Shown here one piece after another: positions 1-42,460 of a stretch of 64,000 bases of DNA (its first letter is position 1; the number at the start of each line of letters is the position of its first letter). The notes beneath the pieces were generated by a model. The model had not been told where the DNA came from, ran no database searches, and worked only from the letters and a program-made list of their open reading frames with translations. This DNA comes from Schmidtea polychroa (Eukaryota). The stretch spans positions 16,122,001-16,186,000 of the forward strand of contig CM097885.1 in NCBI GenBank assembly GCA_044892525.1, in the 5' to 3' direction. The translations under genes were made by a program, and so were the position numbers.

Positions 1-7629
<7,629 letters not shown>

Positions 7630-7848
7630 GAGGCTTTGTTTCCCGGGTGGTAGATGTCGTAATATTTCTGGAGGTATTGATCGCGCAGTTCTGCTGGTAC
7701 TATAATCCTTTTGTTGTCGTTTGAGGTGTAATACCATATGCCGCCTATTTCTTCCAATTGGAGTGAATTCAACCTATGAATTTCGATTATTGTTTCTTTT
7801 TGTTTAGTTTTTAAAATTTCTAACTCTATGATGGATATTATGTTAAGT
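7630..7848 (-). pseudogene. Gypsy pol fragment (RNase H-integrase linker, CsRn1-like family)
   Basis: Near-identical to 14316-14530 and 56087-56305; encodes IVPAELRDQYLQKYYDIYHPG. Confidence 0.85.
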
Positions 7849-14109: not shown

Positions 14110-16516
14110 ATAAAGTGACCTTGATATTATTTCTTTTTCTCCAACACGAAATTTATTCTGTTTATTACTTGAAGGAAATTAGTTATCTGTACATTGATAT
14201 TTATAATTTCATTACGCAATGTCACATTCTCGTGTCTCATTGCTTGCATCTCATATCTTTTTTTACGTCCATTCTCATATAAGGTCAAACAACTATGGTA
14301 TGCAGAAATTCGTATGAGGCTTTGTTTCCCGGGTGGTAGATGTTGTAATATTTCTGGAGGTATTGATCGCGCAGGTACTATAATCCTTTTGTTGTTGTCG
14401 TTTGTAGTGTCGTACCATATGCCGCCTATTTATTCCAATTGGAGTGAATTCAACCTATGAATTTCGATTATTGTTTCTTTTTGTTTAGTTTTTAAATTTT
14501 CTAACTCTATGATGGATGACATGTTAAATGCATTGATGTCGGTTTTTATTCTTGATAATGCGTCTGCACTTATGTTAGCTGAACCTGCTATATATTTTAT
14601 TTTACAATTAGTTTGTGAGATATAGTTTAGTTGTCTTATTTGTCTCGGTGAAGGGTTTTTCATATTCATTGCGTTTATTAAGGATTTATGATCGATATGC
14701 ACTTCAAATTTCTTTCCTTCCAATAGGTTTTGGAAATGTCTGATTGTATCAAGTAGCGCTAATAACTCCCTGTCAAAAGTGGAGTATCTCATTTGGTGAG
14801 TTTTAAGTTTCTTTGAGAAGAAAGCTATTGGTCTTTTTTTCGTTATTTTCTTCTTGGAATATCGCTGCGCCCATTGCTAATCCCGAACAATCTGTGTTGA
14901 CTATGTATGGTAATTCTTGGTTGGGATAGCTTAGGATGCTTGCGTTTTTCAGTGTTTTATTTTGCCTGTTCAAAAGCTGTTATTATTTTTTCATTCCAAT
15001 TTATTTTGATGTTTCTCTTTATTTTGTTCAGTTCGTTGAGAGAGGGCTAGCATTTCGCTACATTTTGGTATGTATTTGTGATAGAAGTTGATCATGCCAA
15101 GGAAACGTTTTAGCTCTTTTGTTGTTTTGGGTAACGGATAATTTTTGATCGCTTTGATTTTGTCGTCTAATGATTTTGTGCTGTTTTCGTTTAACAGGTG
15201 TCCCAAATATTTTATTTATGTGTTCAAAAATGCACATTTTTAATGTCAATTTTTAGTTCATGTTTGTTTAATATTTTGAACACGTTTTTAATGTTTTTTA
15301 TATATTCTTTTTTGTTTGCTGATGCTATCAAGATGTCGTCTAGGTATGCGACTGTGTTTTGTTGATTTCAAAATATTTGGTCATGATGCGTTGGAAAGTG
15401 GCTGCTGCGTTTTTTATTCCAAAAGGCATTTTGTTATATTCGAAAAGTCCTATGGGTGTGATGATTGCGGTTTTCTTTGACAAGAATTTGTTGACAGGCT
15501 TTTTCTAAGTCTATTTTGCTGAAAATTTTGGGTTTGTTAAATCTGTTAATGATGTCGTTTATTATTGGAATTGGGTATTTGTCGGCTGTTGTGATATTGT
15601 TTAGTGCTCTGTAGTCTCCACAGGCTCGCCATTCGCCGTTTTCCTTTTCTTTAAGCATGAGAGCTGATGACCAGTTTGAGTTTGAATGTTTGACGATTTG
15701 GTTTTCAAGTAGTTCGTCGAATATTTTCTTAGTTATTTCGAGTTTATTTTTGTCTAATTATCTGACTTTTGCATGGACTGGGTTTCTGTTGCTAATTATT
15801 ATGTGTTCGATTATGCACTTTGTGTTATTGTTTGCCTCTAGTTTATTAGTTATATTTGGTACATTTTGTATCAGTTTTGCGATTTCATTAGGTATATGCC
15901 AGTTTGTTTCTGTTTTAATTGTTTTTGTTTCACCGTGTTGGGCTGTTATTACTCCGATGTCACAATTGATTTGTTTCTTGGATTGTTTAATTTTGTTGTA
16001 TATGTTGTTAGAATTGTTTGGTAAGACCCTTCCATTCTTGCAGTAGACTAGTAGATCGACGTTTGAGAGAAAATCTGCTCCTAAAATGGCTTGTTTGACT
16101 TCAGCGATAGTGAATTGCCAATTGTATTGTGTTGTTGATGGTGATTTTAATGTTTTGTTTCCCGAACGTTTTGATTGGGCTGCCGTTTGCTGCACACAAA
16201 TTCGCGGTTACTGTTTTTGTATTTTTAGTTAAGTAATTCGGTATTAATGAAATTATTGAACCTGAATCAACAAGAAAATTAAGGCCATTGCTATGCACCG
16301 TAAATGTTTAGCTGTCACCAATTGTCGGTGCTATCACTGGTGACTTTATATATATATTTCCTGACTCTTCTTTGTCGAACGAACAAGGTTTTATTCCCAA
16401 ATTTATTGTGTTAGTAACAATAGTTTTGGTTTGTTCGTTTATTAGGGTTGTTCCATCTTTAATTTCTGTCAAAGCTGTTGCGGCTGCCTAATCTTGTATT
16501 TTGTTGTGGATAGTTT

Positions 16517-17379
16517 TGTTGGGTTTTTAATGCAAGTCGGTACTACGGTCTGACTCCTTTGTGTTCTTTTCCAAATAAATAAATAAACAGATAACCCAAC
16601 ACAAAATCTTTATTGACACTGATGCAGTTACACTTTTACACTTGTATTAGTTTACTCACACTTGATACAATCAGGTTTTGTCTGCACTTTTCAATTGCCA
16701 ACAAATCTCACGCAAGGGTAGATCTTCCAACGGGAGATATCCCTTTCTGGTACGTTCGATTTTTTTTAAATGGTTTACTTTCGACTATCTTTGATATTTC
16801 CTTTTTCACTCTCGTCAACTTCTGTTTTCTTTTCTTCGACCAACTGGCATTTTGTTTTCTTGTCAGTTGCTTTTATACTCGCTTGTTAATTGACTTTATT
16901 TTTGCCAATTATTTTTGGTTTTATTTCCCCCGGGCTTCCTCTTGGAGGTCTTATTTAATTGAAGGGAATTTGCTCATTTCCTTTGACGGCGCTTTTTATC
17001 CGGCTAAATTAATTGCCTTCCCGAAATTGGATTTCTCAATTCGCTCGGGTTTTCCATTGTATCGGGTTTCTCATTAGCTCGGGTTCTCCATTAGCTCGGG
17101 TTTCCCATTAGCTCGGGTTTTCCATTAGTTAATTAATTTTTAATTAATTTTTGTTTTTTGTAATTTATTCCTTTTAGGGACCCCCCATTGATTTTATTTT
17201 ATTATAGCTGAACTCGTCTCATTATTTAGCATCCGCCCATACCAGTTTCCCCCAGAAAATATTCATTTTTAAAATTTTGATTTTTTAATTAATATTTTGT
17301 ACTTTAAATTTTTATTTTGAATTTGGTGTTTTTATCAATTTTCACCTCATTTTTGTGCCTCTCTTGTTGAACCCCAACA
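16517..17379 (-). repeat. 3' LTR of 16.6-kb element
   Basis: Direct repeat of 32255-33117; adjacent polypurine tract AAAAGGGGGGAGATA on minus at ~17380-17394. Confidence 0.97.
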
Positions 17380-17608
17380 TATCTCCCCCCTTTTATTTAG
17401 ATTCGACCTCGAATCTGCATGTATATAATAAGTCTAATTTACCATTATAAATAATAATGTTACTAATAACAATAATAATGACGATAATAATACTACCGAT
17501 AATAATAACAATAATTCCTACCGATAACAATAATAACGATAATAACAATAATAGCAATAATTATTATATCTAATTATTATATCTAATTATTATATTATGA
17601 TTTTTTTT

Positions 17609-17671
<63 letters not shown>

Positions 17672-18384
17672 GCAATAATAAACATAATAAAATATAATTA
17701 TATAACAATGAGATTTCCACTAAAGAAAACTCTAAAGAAAACTTAAATCTTAAATTTGACATTCATTAATTAATTCTAATAATAATAATATCAATAATAA
17801 TAATAATATATAAGCAATATACAAGTAAAATAAATTGAAAATTTGAAAAATAAACATTTTAGATATTTCTATTTCTCAATAATTCGATTTATAAATTGAC
17901 AATCCAATTTAGGGATTCTCAATCTTATCAGAAATATTACTAATACTAGATGATTATTTGGTAGATATTTCTCAATAATTCGATTTATAAATTGACAATC
18001 CAATTTAGGGATTCTCAATCTTATCAGAAATATTACTAAGGGAATGGTAGATATTTCTCAATAATTCGATTGTCATGGAATGAAAGGCTAGTGGCATTCA
18101 TCTACAAATCCCATCAAATTAATTAGTCTTGGACTTTCAATTTGCCTGCTAGATTTGGAATTTAGCTGTTCAAGCCAATAATTTTGATTGGCTGTTTTTC
18201 TTCCATTAATAGGTAAGAAATTTTATTTCTCCTTCATAATTTTATTTTTTTAATTCAGGAAATATTTCACGGACAACAGTAACCATTTTCTATTAATTAT
18301 TGTGATGTGCAACAAAATGAGAAAAAGATTATTACTGGAAATCAATGTTCTGGGGGTACATTCAATTCTAATACGTTTAACAAA

Positions 18385-19035
18385 TTATGCTACTTGAGAA
18401 GCAACCAAAAATTACTTTGGAATCCATTAATCAACTAAGAAAACACGGCGAATTTTGTGACGTAGCCTTGATTGTTGGTCAAAAAAAATCTTAGTCCATA
18501 GAATTGTGTTATCTGCATGTAGTCCTTATTTTAAAGCTATGTTTACTGGCGAATTATCTGAATCACTACAAAATGAAGTAATTAAATATTTGGTTATCTT
18601 TATCAAACGATATTAGGTAACATTAAGGGATATCGATGAACGTGCTGTTGAAGCATTGGTAGAATTTTGTTATACATCTCAAATTGTTATTGAAGAATGG
18701 AATGTACAGTGTTTACTACCAGCTGCTTGTTTATTACAATTATCAGAAATTTAAGATGTTTGTTGTGAATTTTTAAAACAGCAGCTTGATCCATCTAATT
18801 GCTTAGGTATCCAAGCCTTTGCTGATACTCATGCTTGTAATGACTTATTAACCATTGCTGATAAATTTACACATCATAATTTTCAAGTACACTTTATTTA
18901 TTATTACCTCAAGATCGTCTTCTTATGCAGGTGGATAAAAAATTTTTTTTTTTTGTTAATATAAACTTATATTGATTATTTGATGAAGCAAAGAATTATT
19001 TATTATTACCTCAAGATCGTCCTCTTATGCAGGTG
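18385..19035 (+). pseudogene. KLHL20: Captured kelch-like (KLHL20/diablo) BTB-BACK fragment with retained 39-nt intron (18578-18616), frameshift and stop
   Basis: [85 protein letters not shown]. Confidence 0.88.
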
Positions 19036-19765
19036 GATAAATTTTTTGTTAATATAAACTTATATCGATTATTTATTATATTGTGTAAAATAACTTTCAG
19101 ATTCTTTGATGATTTAATACAATAAATTGAAACATATATTTAAAATTAATTATCGCAATTGTCACTGTATTAACTGGAAATCGAAAATCTATTTCCAACT
19201 TATGATGGTGCGCAGAAACATGAATATTGTTGATTTCGAAGCGAATATGAAACCATGAAGTATGTAGATATTAGTTAATATAATTTTGTTGATTTTTTTT
19301 TACACTATTTGAAATTCAATTGTCATGGGCCAATTTATAAAATTATATTTAGTTATCAAAGCAAAATAGTCTATACTCCAATTTTATGCCTAGATATAAA
19401 TAAATGGTTTTGGATAAATAAATATAGATATAGAGACACCGAGATACACAGAGAAACTTATAACCAAATATAGATTTAGATACAATATAGTTCCATTTAT
19501 TCATAAACGATTTCAATGGAAAAATCAATGACTACTGACAACCACACATTTCCAATTGTTGTCCAGGGTAGCCAAACTCCGACAATTGGAAACGTGTTTG
19601 TTGTTATACACAATAATAAGTTTATTTATTTATTTAATCATTTATTTACTCTCAATTATTTACTTATTTATTCTTATTTTGGGGTCTAACTGATGCGCTG
19701 TCAATAAATACATGAGACAAAATCGAGTTCACAATTATTTATTTTATAAATACAATATATAAAAA

Positions 19766-21235
19766 TTAATCCATCTTTATTTCTAATCGTTTCGTTTCAT
19801 GCCGATATCGTATTATTGTTTCTTCGCGTTCATATACTACACCATTGACAGTAACAGTGTCTCCGACATCAATGTTCGAAGTTGTTTTTCTCTTTTTGGA
19901 TTTTCTACATTCTGGCATTGGACCATATTCAAGTGTTGGATGTATCCTTATCATCGAAATGCTTTCCATTAATGCGACACCTTCTTCCGCAATTTCTAAG
20001 AATGATTCATTGGCCCACTTCAATTGAATCAATGGATTTTCACTATCCATCGTCACATTCTCCTCGAATGTTAAATCAATTTCTTCAGATTCCATTACAT
20101 CTTCAATTGGAATTTGCGTTAGTTTTTCTGGTATTGCAGTTGATGTTGATTCAATTTCCCGAAGCTTCTTATATTCGTCCCACGAATATCGCTTTGACGG
20201 TTGATTTTTGGGCATCGGTATGTCATCAATCCATTGACTTTCTACTTTCTGGTATACCTTGCGTATACTTTTCACGTCCTCGAGAGCCGAATGAATACTC
20301 ATCTGAGTCTGTTCTCCACATATTTCTTTCACCACTGTTTGTAGTTTGAACCATTCTCCCCTTATGGTTACTCCCATGTTCTGAAGTATTGGTGCTGCTG
20401 CTAGATCTCGAATGCCGTACAATTGTTCAATCCATATCCCCAAGTATTGTAATTCTGCATGTAAATCATGGCCGATCAATATCTTGCCCACTGTCAAGCG
20501 TTGAATTTCTTTTATTGCCACGTATTGATCACATTGGTTCCTGCTAGCCACTTCTGTAATTCCATGGATCCTTGAATTAAAATGTCGGATTTTTCCTCTT
20601 GGAGTGAGGTATACATCTTTTACTACTTTTCCATAATAATTCATAATTGCTATTGCTAAAGGGATCATTTTCCCTTGGTCTGATGTGCCATATTCAGCAT
20701 CAATGAATAATATTCTATTGCGGATTTCTTCTAGATCCATTTCTTTTCTGAGAAACGACATTTTCTTTTTCAACATTTCCTTTGAAATTTTCAATAACAT
20801 TGGGTCTTCTCCTTCAATTAGATGCATCTGTGGTACCTCATCCGCTTCATTCTCAGTTCTGATTTCCACCACCAACGTTGTCTCCTCATTCGCTGCTCGC
20901 AGTGTTCTCCACATGAAGTCCTTCTGCAGCTTCCATGATGTGAATTTTCGGAGTTGCCACCATATTGTATTATCGTTCTTCAGCACTTCCACTGTACCTC
21001 TGATCACGTGTATGTGATATTCTTCCTTCTGAGACAACTCAATTTCATCTGTCAATTTCAATTCTGAATTTCTCCTTATTGTAAACATTCGTATCTTCAT
21101 TCTTCTGTCATCTATCCGCAAATAATTTGGAATTTGTAAATTTTCATTGATTTCGTATAATTGTTGGCTGGCATGATTTTTCTGCATCTTGAAGTAACTG
21201 TCGTAGGTGGATCTTGCCCATTGTACTTGTTCCAT
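19766..21235 (-). CDS. ORF3: DEDDh 3'-5' exonuclease (REX4/ISG20-like) with uncharacterised N- and C-terminal extensions
   Basis: ExoI LFIDAEYG, RIHGIT, ExoII ILIGHDLHAEL, ExoIII HSALEDV; intact 489 aa. Confidence 0.88.
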   Translation of the reverse strand: MEQVQWARSTYDSYFKMQKNHASQQLYEINENLQIPNYLRIDDRRMKIRMFTIRRNSELKLTDEIELSQKEEYHIHVIRGTVEVLKNDNTIWWQLRKFTSWKLQKDFMWRTLRAANEETTLVVEIRTENEADEVPQMHLIEGEDPMLLKISKEMLKKKMSFLRKEMDLEEIRNRILFIDAEYGTSDQGKMIPLAIAIMNYYGKVVKDVYLTPRGKIRHFNSRIHGITEVASRNQCDQYVAIKEIQRLTVGKILIGHDLHAELQYLGIWIEQLYGIRDLAAAPILQNMGVTIRGEWFKLQTVVKEICGEQTQMSIHSALEDVKSIRKVYQKVESQWIDDIPMPKNQPSKRYSWDEYKKLREIESTSTAIPEKLTQIPIEDVMESEEIDLTFEENVTMDSENPLIQLKWANESFLEIAEEGVALMESISMIRIHPTLEYGPMPECRKSKKRKTTSNIDVGDTVTVNGVVYEREETIIRYRHETKRLEIKMD

Positions 21236-21665
21236 TTTTGCTAAAATGGTTATAATTTAACGTTTGAATTTAATTTACTTTTAAAACTAGGGCTGAGATG
21301 AAGTATCCGAAGGATACTGTCCCAGCTACTAGCTGTATAAATAATAATAATAATAATAATTACCGTTTAGTTAATTGTTGATATATTTTTTTTTTGAAAA
21401 TTAATGGAGTTTAATGGATTTTACCCTCTTTTAATACCCTTATGAAAATTCCCTTAACCCCGTTTTTCTCTCCCCCTTAACACAGCGCTAACCAATCAAA
21501 TTGATTCTTTCCGTTGACATTGAAAAGTGCAGATTCACAAGTAAAATAAAATGAATTATTGATCATATCCATAATGAAATAAAATATTAATAATATCCAT
21601 AAAATATTTGTACTATATTGCTACTACTACTTTATCAATTTTGCATGCAAAGTATTTATGTCTTA

Positions 21666-24600
21666 CTACACAAATGTTTCTTCATAAACGATCCAAGGTC
21701 TCGCAATCTCGGATCGATTCGTAGAAGGTTTGGGTATTGTTCGAAATTCAATTAGCACAATGATAATGAGAATAATGAGAGAGATTGTTATAATGAGAGT
21801 AGTTATTAATAATGTGACACACACAATTTCACTGTCAGTTTTTAATGACGATATGGTTTCGTTATTAGTCATTGACTCATTGATGCTAGAGAAGATGATT
21901 ACGTTGGCAGAGCTAGGGGTTCGGTTGGACTGATTTGATTTGTTTCGATTTCCATACTGCGAGTTAATAGATGGAATTTGCACAATTTTATTTTCCACTA
22001 ATGTTAATTGCCATAAATTTGAAAATAGAGAACGTCTATAGTATTTTATTTTAATGAACACAAATTTTGACGTTGATATTGGTGAACGTTGACGAAAAGT
22101 TAATATTTGAGATTTATTTTTTTCATTTAATATCGATTGAATTTTTCCATAATAATATAAAATAGCTTTTTGATTGGGCTCCGCTTGTCGGGTAACGTTC
22201 ACTAATTGATTGAAAATATGAAAAGTAACCCGATTTGTTTCATTAACTAATCGTATCATATGTTGACTAGAGTGTATTCTGATCCATTGACTATCAATTT
22301 CAGTTCCGTTTTCATATAAAGATTTTTCATAATAATGAATCAGAATATTATAGTTATGATGTAATTTTAAATTTGCATACTTTATAAAGGGTTTTCTGCT
22401 ATTCAATGTATCTATCGCATAATTTTGAAAAACTGCTTTTACTTGTTGGGATTCCTGGGGTTCCCAAAATATGTCAATTCCATTTACCAGTGGTTCAATT
22501 GATACTCGATTATGTAATCTCTTTGTCCAAATATTAATACGTATAAGATTTTGTATTTTTGTATTATTACTTTTCGAATCCAATTGCGTAATTAACCAAG
22601 GGTATTCATAATTCATTGTTAATTGTCTAGCCACATAAATATTTTTGGTGCTGTTCAATTTTATTGGGGGTTCGAAATAGTTTATTAGATTATCTATCTC
22701 TATTTCTTCTGCTCCTCCAGCATAATAAACCCAAACTATTTGAGTACATGTTGAATAAATATGAACTTTGTCTAATAATACAACTGTATTAGTTGCATAT
22801 AATGGGAATACTCTCACTGCATTTACTGACATTATATTGATAATCATTACTGTTGTAATCAATAAAACTTTATTGATGTAACTCAATGGAGCAGGGTTTT
22901 TTGTAAACTTTTGTTTAATTACTGGGTTCCCTGCATCTTTATTTGGTTTTGATCTCAATGGATAACGTGATTCATCTTCTATTATCTTCTTGCATCTGTT
23001 TACATGAACGATGATTGTCCCAGCCTTTTTATTGTTTTGTGGACGCAATTTTAAGTTAGTCTCTGTCGTATCACACACTAGATATGGTCCTTTAAACGGT
23101 CGTTGCAATTTCGTTGACAAGCCTTTTGTTGGTTCTGGTTTGTTTATATACACGAGATCTCCAATTTTAATGTCATGCGCCCGTGCGCGTTTATCATAGC
23201 ATTCTTTATACGCTTCTTGATGATGCCTTATGTTAAGTCCAGCTTGGATCCATACTGACTGTAGTCTTTCATGCATAGCTATTTTATAATCTGACACATC
23301 CATATATTGGGAAATAGGTGACTGAAATTCTAGATCGACTGGCATATTGTTTCGTCGTAGATACATGAGATAAAAGGGTGTTTCTCCAGTGCTTTCATTT
23401 ACTGCATTCCGGTATGCAAATAGGCATGGTTTAATGAATAAATCCCAATCCTTTTGTTTCCTATTTACATAGGATGATATCATATTAATTAGTGTCCCAT
23501 TAAATCTTTCAACTAGACCATCTGTTTGTGGATGATATGGTGAGGTACTAAGTTTTAATATACCAAATAAATCTGTAATTGATTTAAATAATTCACTCTG
23601 AAAATTTGTTCCTTGATCTGTAAGTAATTTCTTTGGTGCTCCGTATCGAAAAATAATATTCTCCACAAATATTTTCGCAACTGTTTCTGCTTTCTGATTT
23701 GGCATTGCATAAGCTTCTGGCCATTTAGTAAGATAATCGCAAAAAACGATAATGTATTTGTTGCCATTTGTTGTTTCCGGCAATGGACCAACGATGTCCA
23801 TTGCTGTCATTTCCATTGGCGCCTTTGGCACTGGCATAGGCTTAAGCGGAACTTTTATTTTCCGTCCCGTATTTCGTCTTGTTAGGCATATCTCACACGT
23901 ATGACACCATTGTCTGACATCTTGTTCCATCGTTTTCCAATAATATTTCTGTTTCAATCTTGATAATGTTTTTCGCGCTGATAAATGCCCTCCTAATGCT
24001 CCATCGTGATACAACAACAGCAATGCTTTTCGATGTTTTGTCGGAACAATAATTAACAAATTTTCATTTTGTACACATTTTAACAAACCATCATGAATAA
24101 TGTATTTATGGTTCTCTTCGGCAATATGTTTCCAGTCACTCTCCTTTTTGATTGAGACAGCATGTTGACGTAACTGATTTAATTCCTCGTCATTTTCCTG
24201 ATCATCTTGTAATTTTTCGATATTATTTACCGTTTTAATTGCCAAGAATATTGTATTTTCGCAATTTTTCTCATCTTGATCAACATTATTTTCTACGGGT
24301 ATTCTCGACATAGCATCCGCATTTGCATTTGATTTTCCTGTACGATACTTTATCTCGAAATCATATTCTTGTAACGCAATTGACCACCTAATTAATTTAC
24401 TGGCCGAATCTCTGTGCTTCATTAGCCATTGTAACGGATTGTGATCTGTAAAGACGACAAATTTTCTGCCCACTAGATATTGTCGAAAAGTAGTTATCCC
24501 ATATACCAATGCTAACGTTTTCTTTTCGATTGTTGAATAATTCTTTTCATGAGGTTTCAATGATCTGCTGGCATAAGCAATTACATGATCTTTTTCCCCT

Positions 24601-26486
24601 TCTACTTGCTGTCCTAATACCGCGCCTAATGCGAAATTACTGGCATCTGTCATTAATATAAACGGTTTTTTAAAGTTCGGACATCTTAATATCGGCTGTT
24701 TTATTAAGCTTTCTTTGAGTTTATCAAACGCTTCTTGCTGAGCTGTTGTCCATTTAAATTTTGCTTGCTTTTTCAATAACATGTTCAAAGGTTGTGCTAC
24801 GTGTGAGAAACTTTTAATAAACTTTCTGTAATAACTGGCTAATCCCAGAAATTGTCGAACCTGATCTACATCCTTGGGAATAGGATATTTCCCAATTTTT
24901 TCTACATTTTCTGGATTTGGTTGCAAACCTCGACGCGAAATGATATGACCCACATAAACGACTTCAGATTTCCCCCATTCACATTTGGAGGGTTTTATTT
25001 TTAAGTTTGCTTCTAACAATCGCTTGAATACTGTTTCCACATCCTGCAAATGTTCCTGAAAACTATTCGAAAATATTATAATATCGTCAATATACACTAA
25101 TGCATGTGGTATATCGCGCAAAACAAAATTCATACCTCTCTGAAATGTAGCAGGTGCTCCTGTTAATCCGAATGGTAACACGTTAAACTCATATAGACCC
25201 TTCCCATCTGAAAATGCAGTTTTCCTTCTATCTTCCTCTTTGACTTTAAATTGATTGTATCCTTTATTAAGATCTATTACCGTAAAATATTGCACCTCCC
25301 CCATCTGATCGAACATTTCCTGTGGAACAGGAATAGGATATGTATCTTTTCTCGTTACTTGGTTCAATTTTCGATAGTCGACACAAAATCTTAAATCACC
25401 GTCCTTCTTTTTAACTACTACTATTGATGATGAGAATGGTGAGGAACTATCTTTTATTATATTGAATTCTTTCATTGCTTTGATTTGCCGATCACTTTCT
25501 TCCTGATGTATGTATGGTATTCTGTACGGCCGTAATTTTATTGGGGTTTCGTTGAGTAATGGTATTTCATGCTCAATCACCTGAGTGAGTCCCAGATCAT
25601 ACTCATGTTTTGCGAATACATTTCTATATTTCTTTAATAATGCACCGAATTCTTGTTTTTGCAAATCCGTCAAATCTTTGCTTGTGATCTGAGGTTCTTT
25701 ATAAATTTTTATATTTCTCGGTAACTTCTGAGCTTCCTCTGATTTGATTTTTGTTAATTTTCCCAATTTGGTTTTGGGTTTTATCTCAACGGATCTTGCA
25801 CTATAATTCGCTATTCTAACTGGTACTGACTTATTTTGGACTTTCACTACTTCATCACACATAGGCACATCGTATTTTTCAACCAGCTTTTGATTTGGCT
25901 CAAATATGTACTCCTCATCTGAGACCCTCATAACATCTGCATAGTAGATTACTTCGCTTTTTGGTGGTACTTCCAATGTTTGGTTTAGAAATACCTCTCC
26001 TACTTCAGGCACTACTTCACCCATTTGTCCTTTTATTAGTTTTCCAGTTCTCAGATCAAGAGAGATTCCATGTAGTTGCTCCATGACATCCATGCCAATT
26101 AGACATTTTACAGGACTTTTTCTCATCACTGATACCCAATGAATTATTTCTTGCTCTCCAATTATCAGTTTAACTTCTAATTTTCCAACAATATTTAGTG
26201 CATTATGTGACATTGATTTAATAATGTGATTCGTTGGTTTTATTTTGGCTTTCTCCTGATACGTCAAGAAACTTTCCGCTACTATAGTATGACTTGAGCC
26301 TGAGTCTAATAAAGCTTCCACTTTTCTCTTGTTAAACTGTATGTTTATTCGAGGTTGTTTTCCTCCTACTACTGTTGTCATTAGTGCATAGCTGCATGGT
26401 AGACCAAGCATATTCTTTCTTTCAATTTCAGCACTCGTTGGTTCAATCTTCTCTAATTCGATTGTGATATTATCTACAGGTTTCAT
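21666..26486 (-). CDS. pol: ORF2: Pol (aspartic protease, RT, RNase H, integrase) with C-terminal signal-like segment, ectodomain and TM
   Basis: LLDSGSS; LRFCVDYRKLN, LPFGL, YIDD; TDAS, TDHNPL; HDGALGGH..CEIC, DIVGPL, DQGTNF, GLVERFN; GPY; then two hydrophobic segments. Confidence 0.97.
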   Translation of the reverse strand: MKPVDNITIELEKIEPTSAEIERKNMLGLPCSYALMTTVVGGKQPRINIQFNKRKVEALLDSGSSHTIVAESFLTYQEKAKIKPTNHIIKSMSHNALNIVGKLEVKLIIGEQEIIHWVSVMRKSPVKCLIGMDVMEQLHGISLDLRTGKLIKGQMGEVVPEVGEVFLNQTLEVPPKSEVIYYADVMRVSDEEYIFEPNQKLVEKYDVPMCDEVVKVQNKSVPVRIANYSARSVEIKPKTKLGKLTKIKSEEAQKLPRNIKIYKEPQITSKDLTDLQKQEFGALLKKYRNVFAKHEYDLGLTQVIEHEIPLLNETPIKLRPYRIPYIHQEESDRQIKAMKEFNIIKDSSSPFSSSIVVVKKKDGDLRFCVDYRKLNQVTRKDTYPIPVPQEMFDQMGEVQYFTVIDLNKGYNQFKVKEEDRRKTAFSDGKGLYEFNVLPFGLTGAPATFQRGMNFVLRDIPHALVYIDDIIIFSNSFQEHLQDVETVFKRLLEANLKIKPSKCEWGKSEVVYVGHIISRRGLQPNPENVEKIGKYPIPKDVDQVRQFLGLASYYRKFIKSFSHVAQPLNMLLKKQAKFKWTTAQQEAFDKLKESLIKQPILRCPNFKKPFILMTDASNFALGAVLGQQVEGEKDHVIAYASRSLKPHEKNYSTIEKKTLALVYGITTFRQYLVGRKFVVFTDHNPLQWLMKHRDSASKLIRWSIALQEYDFEIKYRTGKSNANADAMSRIPVENNVDQDEKNCENTIFLAIKTVNNIEKLQDDQENDEELNQLRQHAVSIKKESDWKHIAEENHKYIIHDGLLKCVQNENLLIIVPTKHRKALLLLYHDGALGGHLSARKTLSRLKQKYYWKTMEQDVRQWCHTCEICLTRRNTGRKIKVPLKPMPVPKAPMEMTAMDIVGPLPETTNGNKYIIVFCDYLTKWPEAYAMPNQKAETVAKIFVENIIFRYGAPKKLLTDQGTNFQSELFKSITDLFGILKLSTSPYHPQTDGLVERFNGTLINMISSYVNRKQKDWDLFIKPCLFAYRNAVNESTGETPFYLMYLRRNNMPVDLEFQSPISQYMDVSDYKIAMHERLQSVWIQAGLNIRHHQEAYKECYDKRARAHDIKIGDLVYINKPEPTKGLSTKLQRPFKGPYLVCDTTETNLKLRPQNNKKAGTIIVHVNRCKKIIEDESRYPLRSKPNKDAGNPVIKQKFTKNPAPLSYINKVLLITTVMIINIMSVNAVRVFPLYATNTVVLLDKVHIYSTCTQIVWVYYAGGAEEIEIDNLINYFEPPIKLNSTKNIYVARQLTMNYEYPWLITQLDSKSNNTKIQNLIRINIWTKRLHNRVSIEPLVNGIDIFWEPQESQQVKAVFQNYAIDTLNSRKPFIKYANLKLHHNYNILIHYYEKSLYENGTEIDSQWIRIHSSQHMIRLVNETNRVTFHIFNQLVNVTRQAEPNQKAILYYYGKIQSILNEKNKSQILTFRQRSPISTSKFVFIKIKYYRRSLFSNLWQLTLVENKIVQIPSINSQYGNRNKSNQSNRTPSSANVIIFSSINESMTNNETISSLKTDSEIVCVTLLITTLIITISLIILIIIVLIEFRTIPKPSTNRSEIARPWIVYEETFV

Positions 26487-26543
26487 TTCTTTTAATTGTT
26501 CATTTGGATATATTGGTGCTGTTGGTCTAAATGTCGGGGTATA

Positions 26544-29500
26544 TCATCTACTAAGAGTATCAATCCCGCTTAATTTTGGCATTGGTTCAAGCAAGAACCT
26601 GGACTCTGGCTCTACTTTACTCTTTATTACACTTTTTCGAAAGCATTTATACTCCGATTCCCCGTTGTTGTTATCATCATTATGATCGTCGTTTTTATCT
26701 TCCGACTGACACGTCGATTCCTCACTTTTTCGGCCATTTCTTAATTGTGCCCTTACTCTTGCCATTTCTTTAAATTGATGATCTGTAATAAAGAATCTAG
26801 CCAACAATGGAATACAACCAATAACTAATTTCCATGACCATCCCGATATTGCGTATATTCGATGTACTGACAACATTTGCGACACTACCACCTTTGCCGT
26901 TATCATAATCACGTAAATTCCAATTAAACCTGCACATGCTTGTCCCAAAAACATGAACTTGCCCCAAATCTTTTCCATCGTTTTATATGTAGCTCGTTTG
27001 AAATGATCAGGTGTTAGCAAATTTTCGTAATTTACTGTTCCTTCTCCATTCGGTAATACTGTGTCAATCATTTCTGAAATTATCCGTTCCTTTTTGGATG
27101 GAAACAACAAATTCCTTTGAGCTTCTTCAATATCTTCGCTTGCATACAAGCCCATTTGTGCCATTTTGTTTAGTGATGTGAAATTTATCAGGTATTCTAA
27201 ATTTGTTAATTCTAGTTTGTCTGGAGTCTTGACCCCACGATAATCTGGTAAGGCTATCCATGAGTCTGTAGCTAATCGGTATAAAGGGGCTAATAATCGA
27301 TTGCATTGCAAAAGTTTTGGTTTAGTTTGTTCATCAAGCAAGATTCTAGTTATCGGTTCCATAAATCGTACCTTTCCCCCAAAGCTTACTGGTAATTCAT
27401 TCGTACATTTTTCGTATTTGGCAATTTTCACTGTGACTTCTTTGCATTTGTAACTGTATAATGCTTCTCCAAATATTCTCGCAAACACTCCATTTTCTGA
27501 TATTAGCATAGGTGCTACTAAATTTGGATTCGTAATTGCCATCGCCATCCGATTTCGGAGAATCTCTTTATTCAACTTACAATCGTTCAGAATCATTTCT
27601 CTATATACATTTTCCATGATGTTTTGACTAAAATGAAACAAATAATCAATTTTATTATTAAAATAATGAGTAAGTTTAATGTCATCTCTGTGAATTTTAA
27701 TTTTTGCTTCTTCCACAACATTTCTAGACACGTAAACACCTTTATAATTTGTTACATATACCATTCGACCACATTTATTTGTGATTTCCTTTTTTATAAA
27801 TCGCATTCCATCTGCTGGTAACGTAGACATTATAACTGTTCCCATTTGCTTTGTCCATACTGGGGTTGATTTAATGGTATTATTTGGTCTATAATTCATA
27901 TTGAAATTATCTGGTTTATCTCTAAACTGTTCTCCTACTAGCTCTTTAAAGTTCATAGTTTTTAAGTGCGCTAAATTACACTTATTTGTTTCTACATTAT
28001 AAACAAGAATCGATTCCCCTGTTTGACAATGTGTTTGTTTCATATTACAGAATGGATGAGTTTGTAATTTTCCCGTATCATCATCGAAAGCTCCTTCGAA
28101 CTCTCTCAACTCCGTGAGATATTCTTCTAGCACCACTGTTTGCTGAATAATTTTACCGTTCATTTTATATGGTTCACCTTCACAGTCGCCATTTGCTTTC
28201 ATAGCTCCCTTTACAATTATTGTTTCCCGTATTCTATGGTTCAATTTTGCCTTTAAACGAATTTCTGGACTTATTTTTAATTCTCCTGTTTGAAATGCTG
28301 CTAGACAGTTTTCTGGAAGCACCTCGACTGGCCTAGGTATCGCATGCATTTTTATGAGTGACGTATGGCTCCATTTACCACAATAAAATACAAATGTTGT
28401 ATGTTTGACAATACACTCTCTCACTTGAGTTCTTCGCAGATCAGACTCTTGATACACATAATATTTTACGTCATTTTCTATTTTTAAACTGCTCGGATAC
28501 GCACCTGGGCATTCCGACATATCTACTACCGAATAGACTTTTCCCATTTCAGTTTGGGAACAATCGTACGCAACTAAAGATGATGTCTGTGTAATTATTG
28601 CACAAAACGTAATCACCATAAACATCGCCCATGGAAATATCATAGTTTTTCTTAGTTCTGGCTTAACTCTTTCATTTACTCGTCTTTGGGGTGGGCTCAT
28701 TTCTTGCTTCTCATTTTTCTTGTCTGTTAGAGATGAACACAGTGTTTTCCAACCACCTTTTTCGTTTACCCAGCTCATTAAATATTCGTTTACTAGCCGG
28801 GCAGCGATGTCTATCAAATTTTCTAACTTGTCTGACCTTGCGAACGTATGCGTTCCAATTTCTAAAACAACATAAGTTAAAGCTATTATTATAACTTCCT
28901 TATTAATTTCATTTTTTGCCAAATTTTCAATTACTGATCTCTCGCAGAATGTATTCTCTTCGCCAAATTTCTGCATCACTTCAGGGAGCCTATTCTTCAT
29001 CTCTTTAACTATTTCTTTCAGTTCATCCTCTACCTCTATTTCTATGTCGAACATTGGATATACTGCTTTAACGAGATGTTTCAACATTTTCTTAGTTTCG
29101 TCGACGTCCTGTTCTAACCTCACTAAATATTTCTTTATTTCATATAAAGTTCTAACTTTCTTATTTTTGATTTCACCATTTATTTCGCCTTCAGGTACAA
29201 GTGGCTCTCCTTGTACGTCTGGTTCTGTGGACTGATCTTTGTTATCAGGATCTTTTTGCTCATTATCACTAACGATTTGATCAATTTCTTTATTTCCCTT
29301 AACTTTTTCATCTTGTTCCTCTGTGTCAGGCTTGTTAGACTCAATATTTACTTCTAAACTCACCCCTTTTACTACGACTATATGGTTCACTAAATATTCC
29401 ACTCGTCCATCTCGGATCAAATATCCGTTTTCATCCAGCTCTTGGGGTACACACCCACAATCGTATAGGTATTCATCATCGTCAAGTTCTTCACCTTTGT

Positions 29501-31856
29501 ACATTACTATAATAATTCCATCTTTCCCCAGCGTTTCAGCCGCTCTCTTCCGCAATTTTCGGACCTTTGCACACCAATGCTCATCTACATATTCCGTTTT
29601 GCCATATCCCTCATAATCTAATGCTATCAAAAATGGCTTTAGCTCTACTCTTGCTTTTCTGAGCTCCTTGCCCAATCTTTGCAATAAACTTCTTAATAAC
29701 TTGGCATATCTGGTTTTCACATGTAAATATGGTCGTATTGCATTCACTATTTTTAGTTTATCGTTTTCCTCCATTTCTAATTTCTCAATAATCTGTAACT
29801 TCTCATTGATTTCATCTTCATCTCCAATATATAACGCATCATTTAATTCCTCTAATATCTCCCTTGAATTCCTTTTGTCTATTATTTTACTACTCATTAT
29901 TTCATCACTAGTAATTACATTTTCCATTTTTAATTCATTTATACTCCCTGGTATAAATCCACAATCTACCAAAAATTCGTCATTTTCTAACAATCTCTCA
30001 TTAAATCTCAACTCTATCATGCATCCTTCCTTTTTTTCTTTTAATTTATTCTTTAAATCATTTACACAATCATTTGCCTCACAACGACAACATAGTACAC
30101 TTTTATCAATCTCGTTTACTACTTCCACCAAGATGGAATCTAACCCTGTTTTCTCTCTCAAAGCTTTTCCAAATATTTTCATTAATTCTTTAATTTCTTC
30201 TTTATACCTTGGATTCATATTATAGTAGTTAACGCACAAGCTAATTACACTTTTTATCTTTCTCATACTCAAAGATATTTGACTTAATTCTCTCAACGAT
30301 TTGATCACTTTAGCCGACTCTATTTCATTATTTCCAATTAGTTTTTCGATTCTGGTCATTATCATTGTTGCTTTTTCACTTTCTAAATCATCTTTTATAA
30401 CTCTCCTTTTCGACTCTTTTTCATTCAATTCCTCTTGCGACTCATACATCATGTGATTATTGTAGTCCTCTTCTGATTCAAACTTTGACATCAATCGATC
30501 CAAACGTCGACCCATTTCTCTCACTTCGCTTTCAATTCTTTCATTAAAATTATCTGGCTGAATAAAAGCTACATTATCCATCTGCGGTTTGTCACTCTGA
30601 AACCTAATCGATTTCTTTAATATGGGCCTTTGGAATTTATCCACATTTCTTGGACATGATCTAGCCATGTGTCCATAACTTCTGCATGAATGACATTGAA
30701 TTTGTCCTTGTAGATTTACTTTATCTCTCTGCGGTGATGGTGAAGTTGATGTTGATCTTGACCTGGCAAAACAATTTCGTGACACATGCCCTTTTCTTCC
30801 GCAATTAAAGCATTGTAAGTTATCATTAGTTCTCGGCTCATTAATGTTCGCTTTAGTGAAACTTTTCGCACCATTTCCTTTTAACCAATCAGGCCACATT
30901 TGCCTTGGACTCCGTTGTACATTATTTTTGGACCAGCATTGATTGCTGTCATGTCCCATTCTTTGGCAATTATCACACTGAATCGGAATTGGGCTTCTCT
31001 GTACTCTATTTTTAAACCAGCATTGGTTAACATGGTGTCCAATCCTTTGGCAATGACTACATTGGATGGGACCTTCCTTTCCATCTGTTTGAATATCTGT
31101 TGACTTGTTCGACTCAAATTTGGATCTAAATTTTGGTGATGGACTACTTGTTTGTTGAAAACGATTGTTTCTAATTGGGGTTACTGATCTTTCGCTTGCG
31201 CCTGAGATGACTGCAAACGATTCTGATTTTGACTGTGTGCTTTTTAAATTTAGCTCAATTTTCATTGCCTTTTTGATCAATTCATCAAAGTCATTAAAAT
31301 CAACATAGCATAGAGCCTTTTTAATTTCTTTCTTTACTCCTGACAAGAATTGATCCTGCAATAATTCTTTTACCTGCTTTGCCATCTCGGCCTGTTCTGG
31401 TTTCACTTCGAACGCTTTCTCTGCAAGAGTTGATAAATGATAAGCAAACTCACTTACCGATTCCTCTGGCTTTTGTACGCGGTTATAGAATTTCTGTCGC
31501 ATTATCCGTTTGATATCCCCTCCGATTAATTTCGTAGCTAAAGCGTCTTTCAACTTGGTCCAGTCATTTGCTACTATTCTTTTATCAATTTGTTGCCACG
31601 CTTCTCTGGCTGCTCCTTTTAGGTATAGCGGTAATCTTTGCACCATTATCGATTGGCTCCATCCATAGGCCGTCGCATACATATAGTAATCTGCCATGAA
31701 ATCGACAAATTCCAGCGGATCTCCACCGTACTGATCCACAGGTAGTTTTTGGCAACTCGCATAATCATTGCCTTCCCTGGCATTCCCCACAGAAACTGTG
31801 GACACCGGTGTTTCATCATTATTATTTGTATTATTAACTTGTCTTTGGGTACTCAT
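26544..31856 (-). CDS. gag-env: ORF1: Gag (4 CCHC knuckles) - 2x ubiquitin-like - Bcl-2-like - envelope glycoprotein polyprotein
   Basis: First ATG 31856 (MSTQ); retrotrans-gag RVQKPEESVSEF; four CX2CX4HX4C; WVNEKGGW; signal segment + LVAYDC, CGKWSH, GEALYSYKC, CTNELPV; C-terminal hydrophobic helices. Confidence 0.92.
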   Translation of the reverse strand: MSTQRQVNNTNNNDETPVSTVSVGNAREGNDYASCQKLPVDQYGGDPLEFVDFMADYYMYATAYGWSQSIMVQRLPLYLKGAAREAWQQIDKRIVANDWTKLKDALATKLIGGDIKRIMRQKFYNRVQKPEESVSEFAYHLSTLAEKAFEVKPEQAEMAKQVKELLQDQFLSGVKKEIKKALCYVDFNDFDELIKKAMKIELNLKSTQSKSESFAVISGASERSVTPIRNNRFQQTSSPSPKFRSKFESNKSTDIQTDGKEGPIQCSHCQRIGHHVNQCWFKNRVQRSPIPIQCDNCQRMGHDSNQCWSKNNVQRSPRQMWPDWLKGNGAKSFTKANINEPRTNDNLQCFNCGRKGHVSRNCFARSRSTSTSPSPQRDKVNLQGQIQCHSCRSYGHMARSCPRNVDKFQRPILKKSIRFQSDKPQMDNVAFIQPDNFNERIESEVREMGRRLDRLMSKFESEEDYNNHMMYESQEELNEKESKRRVIKDDLESEKATMIMTRIEKLIGNNEIESAKVIKSLRELSQISLSMRKIKSVISLCVNYYNMNPRYKEEIKELMKIFGKALREKTGLDSILVEVVNEIDKSVLCCRCEANDCVNDLKNKLKEKKEGCMIELRFNERLLENDEFLVDCGFIPGSINELKMENVITSDEIMSSKIIDKRNSREILEELNDALYIGDEDEINEKLQIIEKLEMEENDKLKIVNAIRPYLHVKTRYAKLLRSLLQRLGKELRKARVELKPFLIALDYEGYGKTEYVDEHWCAKVRKLRKRAAETLGKDGIIIVMYKGEELDDDEYLYDCGCVPQELDENGYLIRDGRVEYLVNHIVVVKGVSLEVNIESNKPDTEEQDEKVKGNKEIDQIVSDNEQKDPDNKDQSTEPDVQGEPLVPEGEINGEIKNKKVRTLYEIKKYLVRLEQDVDETKKMLKHLVKAVYPMFDIEIEVEDELKEIVKEMKNRLPEVMQKFGEENTFCERSVIENLAKNEINKEVIIIALTYVVLEIGTHTFARSDKLENLIDIAARLVNEYLMSWVNEKGGWKTLCSSLTDKKNEKQEMSPPQRRVNERVKPELRKTMIFPWAMFMVITFCAIITQTSSLVAYDCSQTEMGKVYSVVDMSECPGAYPSSLKIENDVKYYVYQESDLRRTQVRECIVKHTTFVFYCGKWSHTSLIKMHAIPRPVEVLPENCLAAFQTGELKISPEIRLKAKLNHRIRETIIVKGAMKANGDCEGEPYKMNGKIIQQTVVLEEYLTELREFEGAFDDDTGKLQTHPFCNMKQTHCQTGESILVYNVETNKCNLAHLKTMNFKELVGEQFRDKPDNFNMNYRPNNTIKSTPVWTKQMGTVIMSTLPADGMRFIKKEITNKCGRMVYVTNYKGVYVSRNVVEEAKIKIHRDDIKLTHYFNNKIDYLFHFSQNIMENVYREMILNDCKLNKEILRNRMAMAITNPNLVAPMLISENGVFARIFGEALYSYKCKEVTVKIAKYEKCTNELPVSFGGKVRFMEPITRILLDEQTKPKLLQCNRLLAPLYRLATDSWIALPDYRGVKTPDKLELTNLEYLINFTSLNKMAQMGLYASEDIEEAQRNLLFPSKKERIISEMIDTVLPNGEGTVNYENLLTPDHFKRATYKTMEKIWGKFMFLGQACAGLIGIYVIMITAKVVVSQMLSVHRIYAISGWSWKLVIGCIPLLARFFITDHQFKEMARVRAQLRNGRKSEESTCQSEDKNDDHNDDNNNGESEYKCFRKSVIKSKVEPESRFLLEPMPKLSGIDTLSR

Positions 31857-32232
31857 TATATTCTCTACTAGTTTTTGGCTTCTCAATTTATAAAATGATC
31901 TGGTTAACACAGGTTTTACTCGTCTAAAATTTAAAGTATTACAATTACAAAATTTACCTTTCGTTTTAATTTTGACTTTTCAACAATCACTCGTTACAAA
32001 TTTTCCCACTTTGCTTCAATAATAAATTCACCACTTTAATAATTCTCGAATAATGTTCACCACTTTCAAATAAACGTTTCACTTCAATATTTATTTATTT
32101 AATTATTATTATCTTTTTCCAAATTTTTTTTTTTCGATACTTTACTAATCTCAACAAATTTTCACCGACCTTTTTATTCCTCGGTATCACTCAAATATTA
32201 TCACAATTTCAACAAATCTTCACCGACTTTTG

Positions 32233-32250
32233 ATCACGTCGGGCTCACCA
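32233..32250 (-). promoter_or_regulatory. Primer-binding site, tRNA-Trp type
   Basis: TGGTGAGCCCGACGTGAT, 4 nt from the LTR; one mismatch to the canonical Trp PBS TGGTGACCCCGACGTGAT. Confidence 0.85.
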
Positions 32251-32254
32251 AATA

Positions 32255-33117
32255 TGTTGGGTTTTTAATGCAAGTCGGTACTACGGTCTGACTCCTTTGT
32301 GTTCTTTTCCAAATAAATAAATAAACAAATAACCCAACACAAAATCTTTATTGACACTGATGCAGTTACACTTTTACACTTGTATTAGTTTACTCACACT
32401 TGATACAATCAGGTTTTGTCTGCACTTTTCAATTGCCAACAAATCTCACGCAAGGGTAGATCTTCCAACGGGAGATATCCCTTTCTGGTACGTTCGATTT
32501 TTTTTAAATGGTTTACTTTCGACTAACTTTGATATTTCCTTTTTCACTCTCGTCAACTTCTGTTTTCTTTTCTTCGACCAACTGGCATTTTGTTTTCTTG
32601 TCAGTTGCTTTTATACTCGCTTGTTAATTGACTTTATTTTTGCCAATTATTTTTGGTTTTATTTCCCCCGGGCTTCCTCTTGGAGGTCTTATTTAATTGA
32701 AGGGAATTTGCTCATTTCCTTTGACGGCGCTTTTTATCCGGCTAAATTAATTGCCTTCCCGAAATTGGATTTCTCAATTCGCTCGGGTTTTCCATTGTAT
32801 CGGGTTTCTCATTAGCTCGGGTTCTCCATTAGCTCGGGTTTCCCATTAGCTCGGGTTTTCCATTAGTTAATTAATTTTTAATTAATTTTTGTTTTTTGTA
32901 ATTTATTCCTTTTAGGGACCCCCCATTGATTTTATTTTATTATAGCTGAACTCGTCTCATTATTTAGCATCCGCCCATACCAGTTTCCCCCAGAAAATAT
33001 TCATTTTTAAAATTTTGATTTTTTAATTAATATTTTGTACTTTAAATTTTTATTTTGAATTTGGTGTTTTTATCAATTTTCACCTCATTTTTGTGCCTCT
33101 CTTGTTGAACCCCAACA
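32255..33117 (-). repeat. 5' LTR of 16.6-kb element
   Basis: Direct repeat of 16517-17379; only two substitutions noticed by eye. Confidence 0.97.
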
Positions 33118-35084
33118 GTTTTGTCTGTTTTCATAATTTTGCGTTCTCCTGGATTCACTTCTTTGTAATTCGGTAATGTCTTTTCTTAGACTTTTGTTTT
33201 CGATAATTATTTCGTCGAATTTTGTTACCAAAGTAGAGAGGAGTTTGTTCGTTTCTGTAGTTTCTGAGCTATTGTGTACCGAGATGTTTTGGTCGTTGTA
33301 TTTGAAATAATTTTTGTTTTGGTATGTTCTACATATTGTCTGTTACATTTCGTCATTGATTTGTCTGCTATGTTTGCCAGAGTTTCGAGGTCTGTACAGT
33401 TGCTGACAGCTAGAATCCGGCGTATTTCAGGTGGCATTGCGCGCATGAATAGGTCTTTCATAAACTCTTTTGAGCCAGTGTTATTTTAGGTTGTAAGTAT
33501 TCGAGTTTTGTTTTTAAGTTTCGCAGGAATTCAGACGGTTTGTCGTTACGCAATGGTATACCTTTCAAACAGGACTCGAGTAGTTCTCGTCTGTTTATTT
33601 TGTTCCTATTTATTACGGTATAAGTTTTCGAAAGGGTTGTAATCCTTTGATATTTCCTCTATTCTATCAGTATCTCGTTGAGGATGTTGCTTGGAAGGGT
33701 GACAATTATGTGAGAGCAAACAGTTTTTGATGATTTAATGCCTGATAGACCTAATGTTAATTTGGCGAATTCTAGCCACTTTTGTGGTGTCCCGTTTTCG
33801 TCTGTAAAGAAATTTGGAATGTTTGGCTTAGGGTTAAGTATTGTGTTTACCGCGGATGAATTGTCGGGGTTGTTGTAATAATTGCTGTTTTCTTGAGTTG
33901 TGTGTGTTTTCTGTATGGGCATTAGGGTTGTAATGATAGTTTATGTTTTCTGGTGTATGAGTGTTTTCATAAATGTTGGGTATCTGTGTAGTATTTATCG
34001 GGTTTGTTTGATTGGTTGCAATTGATTGTTTTGTTGTTGTATTAAAAAATTATAATTGTTTATCTGAAGAGTATGGCCTACTGTGTTCGGCAAAAGTGTC
34101 ACTAGTCTTTATAGTTCTATAATAACTATACTAAAAGGTTTCGTGATTGAAAGAACAAATGCCGAATTCGTGTGTGTTATTGTTGTTTTATCTTCTGACA
34201 CCAATTATGTTGTGATATTCCCGTTGGTATGTGTGTATTATTTAAGTATTTGTTTAATGTATGACTGTGTGTTGAAAGGAAATTGTAAGGGTCCATCCGA
34301 GTCACCAATAAATAAACTGTCTCGGGACAGCTGAGGTGAATTTATGTAAGTTACCGAAAATTATGATATACAAATGAGTAAAACGGATGTTAATATAAAA
34401 TTACAACGAAACGCTGTAACTACAAATTTTATTATATATATAAAATTAATTAATTAAGTGACCTTGATATTATTTCTTTTTCTCCGACACGAAATTTATT
34501 CTGTTTATTACTCTAGGGAAATTAATTATCCGTTGAAGATTAAAATTGGTTTTTCTACTGAAGGTTCTCAGATATTAAATGTATTACTCATAATGAATAA
34601 TTGCTGATTAAATATTTAAATTATTACTTGAGGGAAATTAGTTTTCACTTGAAGATTAGAATCGCTTTTTCTACTGAAGGTTCTCAGATATCATATGCAT
34701 TCCTCGTACTGTATAATGGCTGATTGAATATTTAAAATATTACTTGAGGAAAATTAGTTGAAGATTAGACTCGCTTTTTCTGCTTAAGGTTCTCATATAT
34801 AAAATGTATTACTCGTGATGAATAATTGTAGATTGAATATTTAAAATATTGGCATAACCACAGAATTGAAATTGTCAAAAATAGTATAGTTATTTAAAAA
34901 TTTTTAATTTCTGTTATTGAATTTTTTCTTCTTTTATCAATTTTCTATTGCGATAATTTACCTTGGTAAACTATCGCTATATAGTTTTTAAAAAAAAATA
35001 AAAATAAATTCTTTTCCACGTGCAACGTGCGAGATTTTAATTTACATATAACCAACGAATAAAATAAAGTAAAATTTTATAATA

Positions 35085-41554: not shown

Positions 41555-42394
41555 TTAAATTTGTAAGAATTTTTCAATTCTGCACCTGAGCAGCAATTTA
41601 TCACTTTTGGCTGCTAATTGATAGATTGAGCTGGCATCATGATCAAGATAATAATAATAATAAATGCTAATTGGATTATTTCTATCATCTGAAGGTTTCC
41701 TCCATCCCGCTGCATCCGGCAAATCTGAATATTTTATTGACTTGCTCATATAAATGTTGCCATTTGCTGGATCGATCACATCGATTGTCACGGATTGATT
41801 GAACGGCCAATCCAATTGCTCATCATTTGCCCCACGCATCACACAGAAACCAACATTAACCCAATCACCCCCAATCACCACCCACAAGCACATTTTGTAA
41901 CCGATTGGCCCTGAATAAAATGGCTTGCTGTAAATATTTTCATTTCTGTTTTGTGAAAATTTATCGATTTGCCATTCAAAAAATCCGTAATTTATATATT
42001 TTTCATTTGCTACTTTTGTTTCAATCTGCCGAATTTCATTGGCGCATTTCGCCATTTCAAGCTGCAGCTGAATCTCAAATTCAAATATTTCAATAAATCA
42101 ATAAATCACCTTTTCATTCTCCTGTTGCTGCCGCTGCTGGCATTTCTCTTTCATCTCATCAATTTGCTGTTGACATTTTGTTTCATTCTGCCGAATTTCA
42201 TTGGCGCATTTCGCCATTTCAAGCTCCAACTGAATCTCAAATTCAAATATTTCAATAAATCAATAAATCACCTTTTCATTCCCCTGTTGCAGCTGCTGCT
42301 GGCATTTCTCTTTCATCTCATCAATTTGCTGTCTGACCTGCTTTGCATCAATAACAAATCAATATGCATGCATTTTTATACAGATCTAGTAATG

Positions 42395-42460
<66 letters not shown>

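Follow-up and report, generated by a model that had tools for sequence, protein, structure and literature searches.

A single in-frame TGA within the Env tail of a young Burro-like GAG-ENV-POL element, a candidate leaky stop ahead of Pol

The planarian Burro elements carry one ORF of 4,873 or 5,140 aa, in which Gag is followed by a BCL2-like domain, Env and then the protease, and a review presents this as the first case of an env set in frame between gag and pol (PMC6431247). GAG-ENV-POL elements with a gB-type Env are reported from Nematoda, Bryozoa and Platyhelminthes (PMC13524379), and the single-frame gag-env-pol layout is already described in these two sources (PMC6431247; PMC13524379). 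With the GAG-ENV-POL errantiviruses the element analysed here shares gene order, a Ty3/gypsy Pol, a probably chuvirus-related fusogen and a recent insertion, a comparison made by description, in which one of the listed planarian families might be our element itself (PMC13524379). In the main text of that source the terms readthrough, late domain, splic-, frameshift and polyprotein are absent and the route of Pol expression is not treated (PMC13524379), and none of the flatworm element names has a row in the eLife Env supplement. The likeness to Burro and GYPSM1, as these are described, extends to the CCHC Gag, the Bcl-2-like domain, the mononegavirus-like in-frame Env, the order PR-RT-RH-IN and an accessory ORF (PMC6431247). 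However, Burro is given as >30 kb and one frame, whereas our element has 16.6 kb and 3396 codons with one TGA, which leaves it without an uninterrupted ORF from Gag to integrase (PMC6431247). A Bcl-2-like domain does stand directly before the in-frame Env, with scores that are weak but consistent. Unlike Burro, with its >30 kb and its additional modules, the element gave no match to MATH, BIR, ankyrin or dUTPase in a Pfam scan; its ORF3 is ISG20-like, and its Pol ends in a predicted membrane-protein tail. Because of its size and its interrupted ORF it was not filed as Burro.

Murine leukaemia virus is a gag-stop-pol readthrough element. A UGA separates gag and pol in Tca2 of Candida albicans, where the flanks of the stop alone are reported to have given no readthrough (PMC2194720), and alphaviruses are described as having a UGA readthrough stop (PMC8310308). 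Our element resembles this group in having a single in-frame stop ahead of the polymerase, a UGA as in Tca2 and the alphaviruses, and differs from it in that the stop comes after Env and not after Gag, lies in the cytosolic tail of a membrane protein and is followed by no predicted 3' structure. It also resembles viruses with late domains, since PTAP and YPXnL motifs are adjacent on the predicted cytosolic side; such motifs are described from HIV-1 p6 and from Ebola virus structural proteins (PMC7995964), whereas here, as in many related fusogens, they close the Env tail. Literature searches listed no report on a stop within the Env tail in elements of this kind, or on late-domain motifs in their Envs, questions on which Sacco et al. 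(2022), Grohme et al. (2018) and the supplements may bear.

The element lies in a window of 64 kb from the genome of an AT-rich animal, the window being the whole stretch of DNA that was analysed, and is a young Burro-like GAG-ENV-POL Ty3/gypsy element (Table 1). Two LTRs with TG...CA ends, a short target duplication, a primer-binding site, a polypurine tract and the order of the Pol domains are those of Ty3/gypsy (Metaviridae), and the gene order gag, env, pol is that of the GAG-ENV-POL errantiviruses. The two LTRs (863 bp each) differ at 2 positions. We take the primer-binding site to resemble tRNA-Trp; no tRNA genes were found within the 64-kb window. ORF1 encodes in succession a Gag with 4 CCHC knuckles, the Bcl-2-like domain, a signal-like segment, the Env ectodomain, a TM helix and a cytoplasmic tail, and its identity in the earlier note is corrected here to Gag, Bcl-2-like domain and Env. 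Pfam Bcl-2 was matched by 5/6 aligned members, and a profile of this domain retrieved Bcl-2 family chains from the PDB (best E 1.6e-4). The Env ectodomain is a Monjiviricetes_fusion domain (Pfam, E 1e-87) with a hydropathy compatible with signal and TM flanks, while a comparison with PDB sequences at E<=1 yielded 6 matches, no fusogen among them. The Pol order PR-RT-RH-IN follows from Pfam, and the top PDB match is the Ty3 RT (E 1.5e-90). The C-terminal extension of Pol, for which the Atlas contained no match, is predicted to be a second membrane glycoprotein, one guess being that it serves as a partner of the fusogen. Hydrophobic segments after the integrase were also seen in five relatives (L002, L005, P0010, P0012 and P0020), with no BLAST similarity among them. 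For ORF3, acceptor-like sites at 21333 and 21241 and the LTR donor-like site at 32397 point to expression from a spliced message. The ~2.4 kb that separate ORF3 from the 3' LTR (19766-17380, minus strand) lack a long ORF, contain short duplications and TAA runs, and may include captured host sequence. An exact look-up of three element proteins gave no match.

Table 1. Features of the element and of the ORF1-Pol junction, in window coordinates
Feature	Position	Strand	Remarks
LTR retroelement, whole	16517..33117	-	16.6 kb; TG...CA ends; 4-bp target duplication AAAC
5' LTR	32255..33117	-	863 bp; donor-like GTGAGT at 32397
Primer-binding site	32233..32250	-	starts TGG, 4 nt past LTR
ORF1	26547..31856	-	1770 aa from first ATG (31856)
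Bcl-2-like domain	28749..29021	-	Pfam Bcl-2 E 2.7e-4, under curated cut-off
Env	26883..28646	-	signal-like segment 28646-28590, ectodomain, TM helix 26939-26883
In-frame TGA, sole	26544..26546	-	within Env cytoplasmic tail, 11 codons ahead of IYP
PTAP	26514..26525	-	
IYPNEQL	26493..26513	-	hydrophobic-YP / YPx3L; YPNEQL = 26510-26493
First ATG past stop	26484..26486	-	matches start Met of P0007
ORF2 (Pol)	21666..26543	-	1625 codons; ends TAG TAA
ORF2 domains		-	protease 26360-26070, RT 25415-24939, RNase H 24677-24363, integrase from 24047
RNase H lesion	24519..24521	-	ORF2 residue 675; column invariant in aligned relatives, differs in window copy
Pol C-terminal extension	21669..22871	-	signal-like segment, 11 N-glycosylation sequons, TM helix, short tail
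ORF3	19766..21235	-	exonuclease domain of ISG20-like type (7yw5, E 9.6e-11); TTTTAG, acceptor-like, 5 nt upstream of ATG
3' LTR	16517..17379	-	polypurine tract ahead

The earlier note had held that a single TGA joins ORF1 and Pol in one frame of ~3400 aa, and this was borne out: the open frames 31979-26544 and 26543-21666 adjoin in the same frame, and from the ATG at 31856 there are 1770 + 1 + 1625 = 3396 codons with one stop. A frameshift between ORF1 and Pol is ruled out, as the frames abut. The minus strand reads ...ACT CTT AGT AGA TGA TAT ACC CCG ACA..., that is TLSR*YTPTFRPTAPIYPNEQLKEM, and the 19 codons from the TGA to the ATG at 26486 read YTPTFRPTAPIYPNEQLKE. What had been seen as a 19-codon linker with PTAP and YPxxxL has this length and contains both motifs, but it is the last part of the Env tail and not a separate linker; by hydropathy, the TM helix of Env is located ~110 residues ahead of the TGA. 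P[TS]AP occurs once in ORF1 and ORF2 together, and with the element's own composition the chance of a match in a given 19-mer is ~1.4e-4 for P[TS]AP and ~4e-3 for YPx(1 or 3)L. The classic leaky context is CUA after UGA. Here a T follows the TGA, in agreement with the remark that UGA-U is not this context. Folding of the downstream RNA, which the earlier note had proposed, gave a z of -1.45, none of the folded stretches starting at or after the stop had z < -1.7, and this folding of local, pseudoknot-free pairings revealed no stable RNA structure 3' of the TGA. The junction offers a single stop ahead of an intact downstream frame, as in readthrough elements, and neither the classic 3' context nor, by this folding, a stimulatory RNA structure.

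The tail motif itself is a firmer result than any reading of the stop. A search with Env returned 1498 matches, the best 150 of which were analysed; 124/150 align across the TM, and these comprise 14 that run into a protease motif in frame, 4 that end within 75 residues and 106 that end without a protease. Among these best 150 of 1498, a hydrophobic-YP motif occurs in the tail of 11/14 fused proteins (0.9 expected from shuffles) and 58/106 free-standing ones (4.5 expected), mostly <=35 residues from the C-terminus; YPxL or YPx3L occurs in 6/14 (0.5 expected) and 38/106 (2.4 expected), and P[TS]AP in 1/14 (0.04 expected) and 19/106 (0.9 expected). In five of these proteins P[TS]AP stands just ahead of YP, and one (P0148) has PTAPIYP like our element. 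The distance from the motif to the protease active site is 31-61 residues in the 9 fused rows listed and 67 in our element. Closer Env fragments (57-74% identity) stop short of the tail. Judged from these alignments, hydrophobic-YP marks the Env tail end family-wide, which places the TGA 11 codons before an inherited tail motif. Hydropathy indicates a signal-like segment ahead of Env and a TM upstream of the stop, which predicts a cytosolic location for the tail, its motifs and Pol. Motifs of the P[TS]AP or YPXnL type, the YP type conserved, are thus found on the predicted cytosolic side, as would be expected of late domains, and their agreement with the published consensus suggests that they may recruit ESCRT (PMC7995964). 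The late-domain idea of the earlier note accordingly gains support as far as the enrichment of YP and P[TS]AP in Env tails and their predicted cytosolic position are concerned, but PTAP is poorly kept in the closest relatives (1/14). Its further proposal that readthrough adds ESCRT-recruiting motifs fails for this family, because relatives without the stop carry the motifs on every Env; the motifs belong to the ancestral tail end, and the idea of a linker that newly adds them was rejected. Whatever the nature of the stop, the excess of YP- and P[TS]AP-type motifs at the tail end throughout this fusogen family suggests that its envelopes, and not capsids alone, may recruit budding machinery.

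As to the TGA, we lean, with little more than even confidence, towards a leaky stop by which the output of replication enzymes is limited, a chance mutation in this copy being almost as likely. Most ribosomes would end at the TGA inside the Env cytoplasmic tail, while a minority would read on and produce Env with its full tail (PTAP and IYPNEQL) together with Pol. According to the predicted topology Gag and the Bcl-2-like part would be cytosolic and Env luminal, whereas tail and Pol would be cytosolic and tethered to the membrane until the protease cuts. Readthrough would lower the Pol:Gag ratio from an ancestral 1:1, and the tail motifs would recruit ESCRT. In support of a leaky stop, the sole stop among 3396 codons is a TGA and falls between Env TM and protease, a region with 4.4% of the nonsense target; a rough calculation with guessed terms favours a programmed over a random stop by ~12:1 on position, corresponding to 0.39-0.57 at priors of 5-10%. 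Moreover, the 19 post-stop codons have stayed open and retained the family motif, so they are translated now or were until recently.

The same stop may instead be a nonsense mutation confined to this copy or to a small, dependent subfamily. In that case the active family, like its relatives, would make one 3.4-kaa Gag-Bcl2-Env-Pol polyprotein, which signal peptidase and the element's protease would cleave, and every Env tail would end in the motifs; we consider this a serious possibility, although one with less than even chances. The position of the stop argues against it, as a random stop would fall between TM and protease in only ~4% of cases and be a TGA in ~1/3 of those. In its favour, and against a leaky stop, the frame from Env to protease is open in 14/14 fused proteins (best 150 of 1498 Env matches), a class that is biased because a stop would hide a protein from it by construction. 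That Burro elements are described with a single ORF (PMC6431247) also tells against a leaky stop. Among five related loci taken from metagenomes (L001-L005), one (L004) is decayed and the 3/3 intact ones L001, L002 and L005 are open at the DNA level from Env through integrase, with 2763, 3495 and 2693 codons and no stop. As no traceable relative has a stop at this position, the stop is a derived state. In a quick tree of 30 Env rows (our element, 4 loci and 25 of the 150 proteins, some rows being close pairs) our Env falls within a 19-row clade with support 100, of which 14 rows are fused, with no resolved place inside the clade; membership of a mostly fused clade likewise speaks for a private mutation. 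Two proteins with 32-34% identity (P0025 and P0130) end ~100 residues past the TM and lack the motif; a similar stop could be hidden in them, or they could be decayed or truncated. The stop precedes and does not follow the conserved tail motif, so that termination would deprive most Env molecules of a motif that more than half of the family retains. This again disfavours a leaky stop, as does a junction at which neither a stable RNA structure was predicted nor the classic context is present. The remaining locus (L003) can be read both ways. Its single stop in 1402 codons is also a TGA at a domain border (L003:3058-3060), the one that separates the Bcl-2-like part from the Env signal and is the classic place for a gag stop, and this second border TGA supports a leaky stop; it lies, however, at a different border, and the sister of this locus (P0008) is open at that position. 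Several relatives (P0004, P0008, P0009, P0010, L001 and L002) have two to four protease-like domains after Env, and our element has one.

Sister copies and the age of the insertion bear on the same choice. The element stretch or part of it is contained in 20/24 listed sequencing runs, none of these 20 being an RNA run, with variants at many identity levels. Sister copies were compared in the contigs of 4 of the 24 listed runs, where 1516 differences were counted and the 40 of them that are shown do not include the TGA site. The site is bridged gap-free by 2 of 32 listed records, one of them ~85% identical, and the reading frame is therefore kept. Of the shown differences 31 were classified and 1, located before the ORF3 ATG, was dropped; since 23/30 of the remaining coding differences to other samples are synonymous, the lineage, Pol included, has been under selection. 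A further protein (P0007) is 64% identical over the Pol start and begins at a Met matching position 26486, although its model is chimeric and looks decayed. Together the difference table, the bridging records and the start of this protein are weak hints that the TGA is shared among sister copies, in favour of a leaky stop and against a private mutation. Still, the table proves little, because a lesion in RNase H is missing from it as well, and the absence of the site from it was rejected as proof of a shared TGA. This lesion lies in a column that we take to be the RNase H catalytic site. Our copy departs from the aligned relatives at 20/196 invariant Pol columns, one of them in the RNase H active site, and is therefore probably not competent by itself; the RNase H change is likely to be disabling in this copy. 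Such a second lesion favours a nonsense mutation over a leaky stop, as does the LTR age, at which ~0.5 nonsense changes are expected (0.06-1.8; 0.7 without transition weighting) and the probability of exactly one is ~0.3. The earlier note had named readthrough and nonsense as the alternatives, and this proved to be the right pair, with readthrough slightly favoured. If the TGA is private to this copy, what remains is a defective copy of an element type already known. If it is shared, the element works like a gag-stop-pol readthrough element with the stop after Env, gating the tail motifs, and such a stop would be a new solution for the ratio of capsid, envelope and enzyme in GAG-ENV-POL elements, a ratio whose control from one long frame the consulted papers leave aside. 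A wider proposal, which we regard as doubtful, is that giant flatworm gypsy polyproteins repeatedly evolve leaky UGAs at domain borders and that the UGA here limits the ESCRT motifs to Pol-carrying Env, coupling budding to the packaging of reverse transcriptase.

The start Met in common with P0007 also fits a third explanation, to which we give very little weight, namely that the TGA terminates translation throughout the family and that Pol has its own start, the ATG at 26486, reached through a spliced message, an internal promoter or reinitiation. In a spliced Pol message, the donor of the LTR could be paired with an acceptor near 26527 or 26551. For ORF3 the element seems able to splice, with acceptor-like sites that rank 5 and 18 of 1121 by a crude score and a donor-like site in the LTR, and a promoter at the gag-UGA-pol junction is described for Tca2 (PMC2194720). 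However, the acceptors at the junction rank only 67 and 79 of 1121 by the same crude score, an out-of-frame ATG lies upstream of the Pol ATG, and an untranslated spacer would not keep PTAPIYPxxQL. In addition, the LTR-to-junction joint is represented by 0 of the 15 shown of 213 joints (contigs only). A search of the shorter proteins with the junction, an X replacing the stop, gave 1 match (P0007) and none across the site, a search with the Pol N-terminus gave 1 distant match, and the metagenome scans contained no loci like P0007. Env relatives were likewise absent from the viral contigs (2 scans) and prokaryote genomes scanned.

The surroundings of the element in the window contain further repeats. 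Its insertion target is a copy of another gypsy family (14260-16519 and 33119-34206), which is also represented by a frameshifted copy at 54077-60222 with 786-bp LTRs that are 99.5% identical. Pieces of a TRAF-like gene (RING, zf-TRAF and MATH) were found at 41555-43150 (minus strand) and 62221-64000, part of the TRAF-like region being duplicated and inverted near the window end. Finally, long inverted repeats at 109-1383 and 6431-7705, 89% identical and ~7.6 kb across, are possibly the ends of a DNA transposon.
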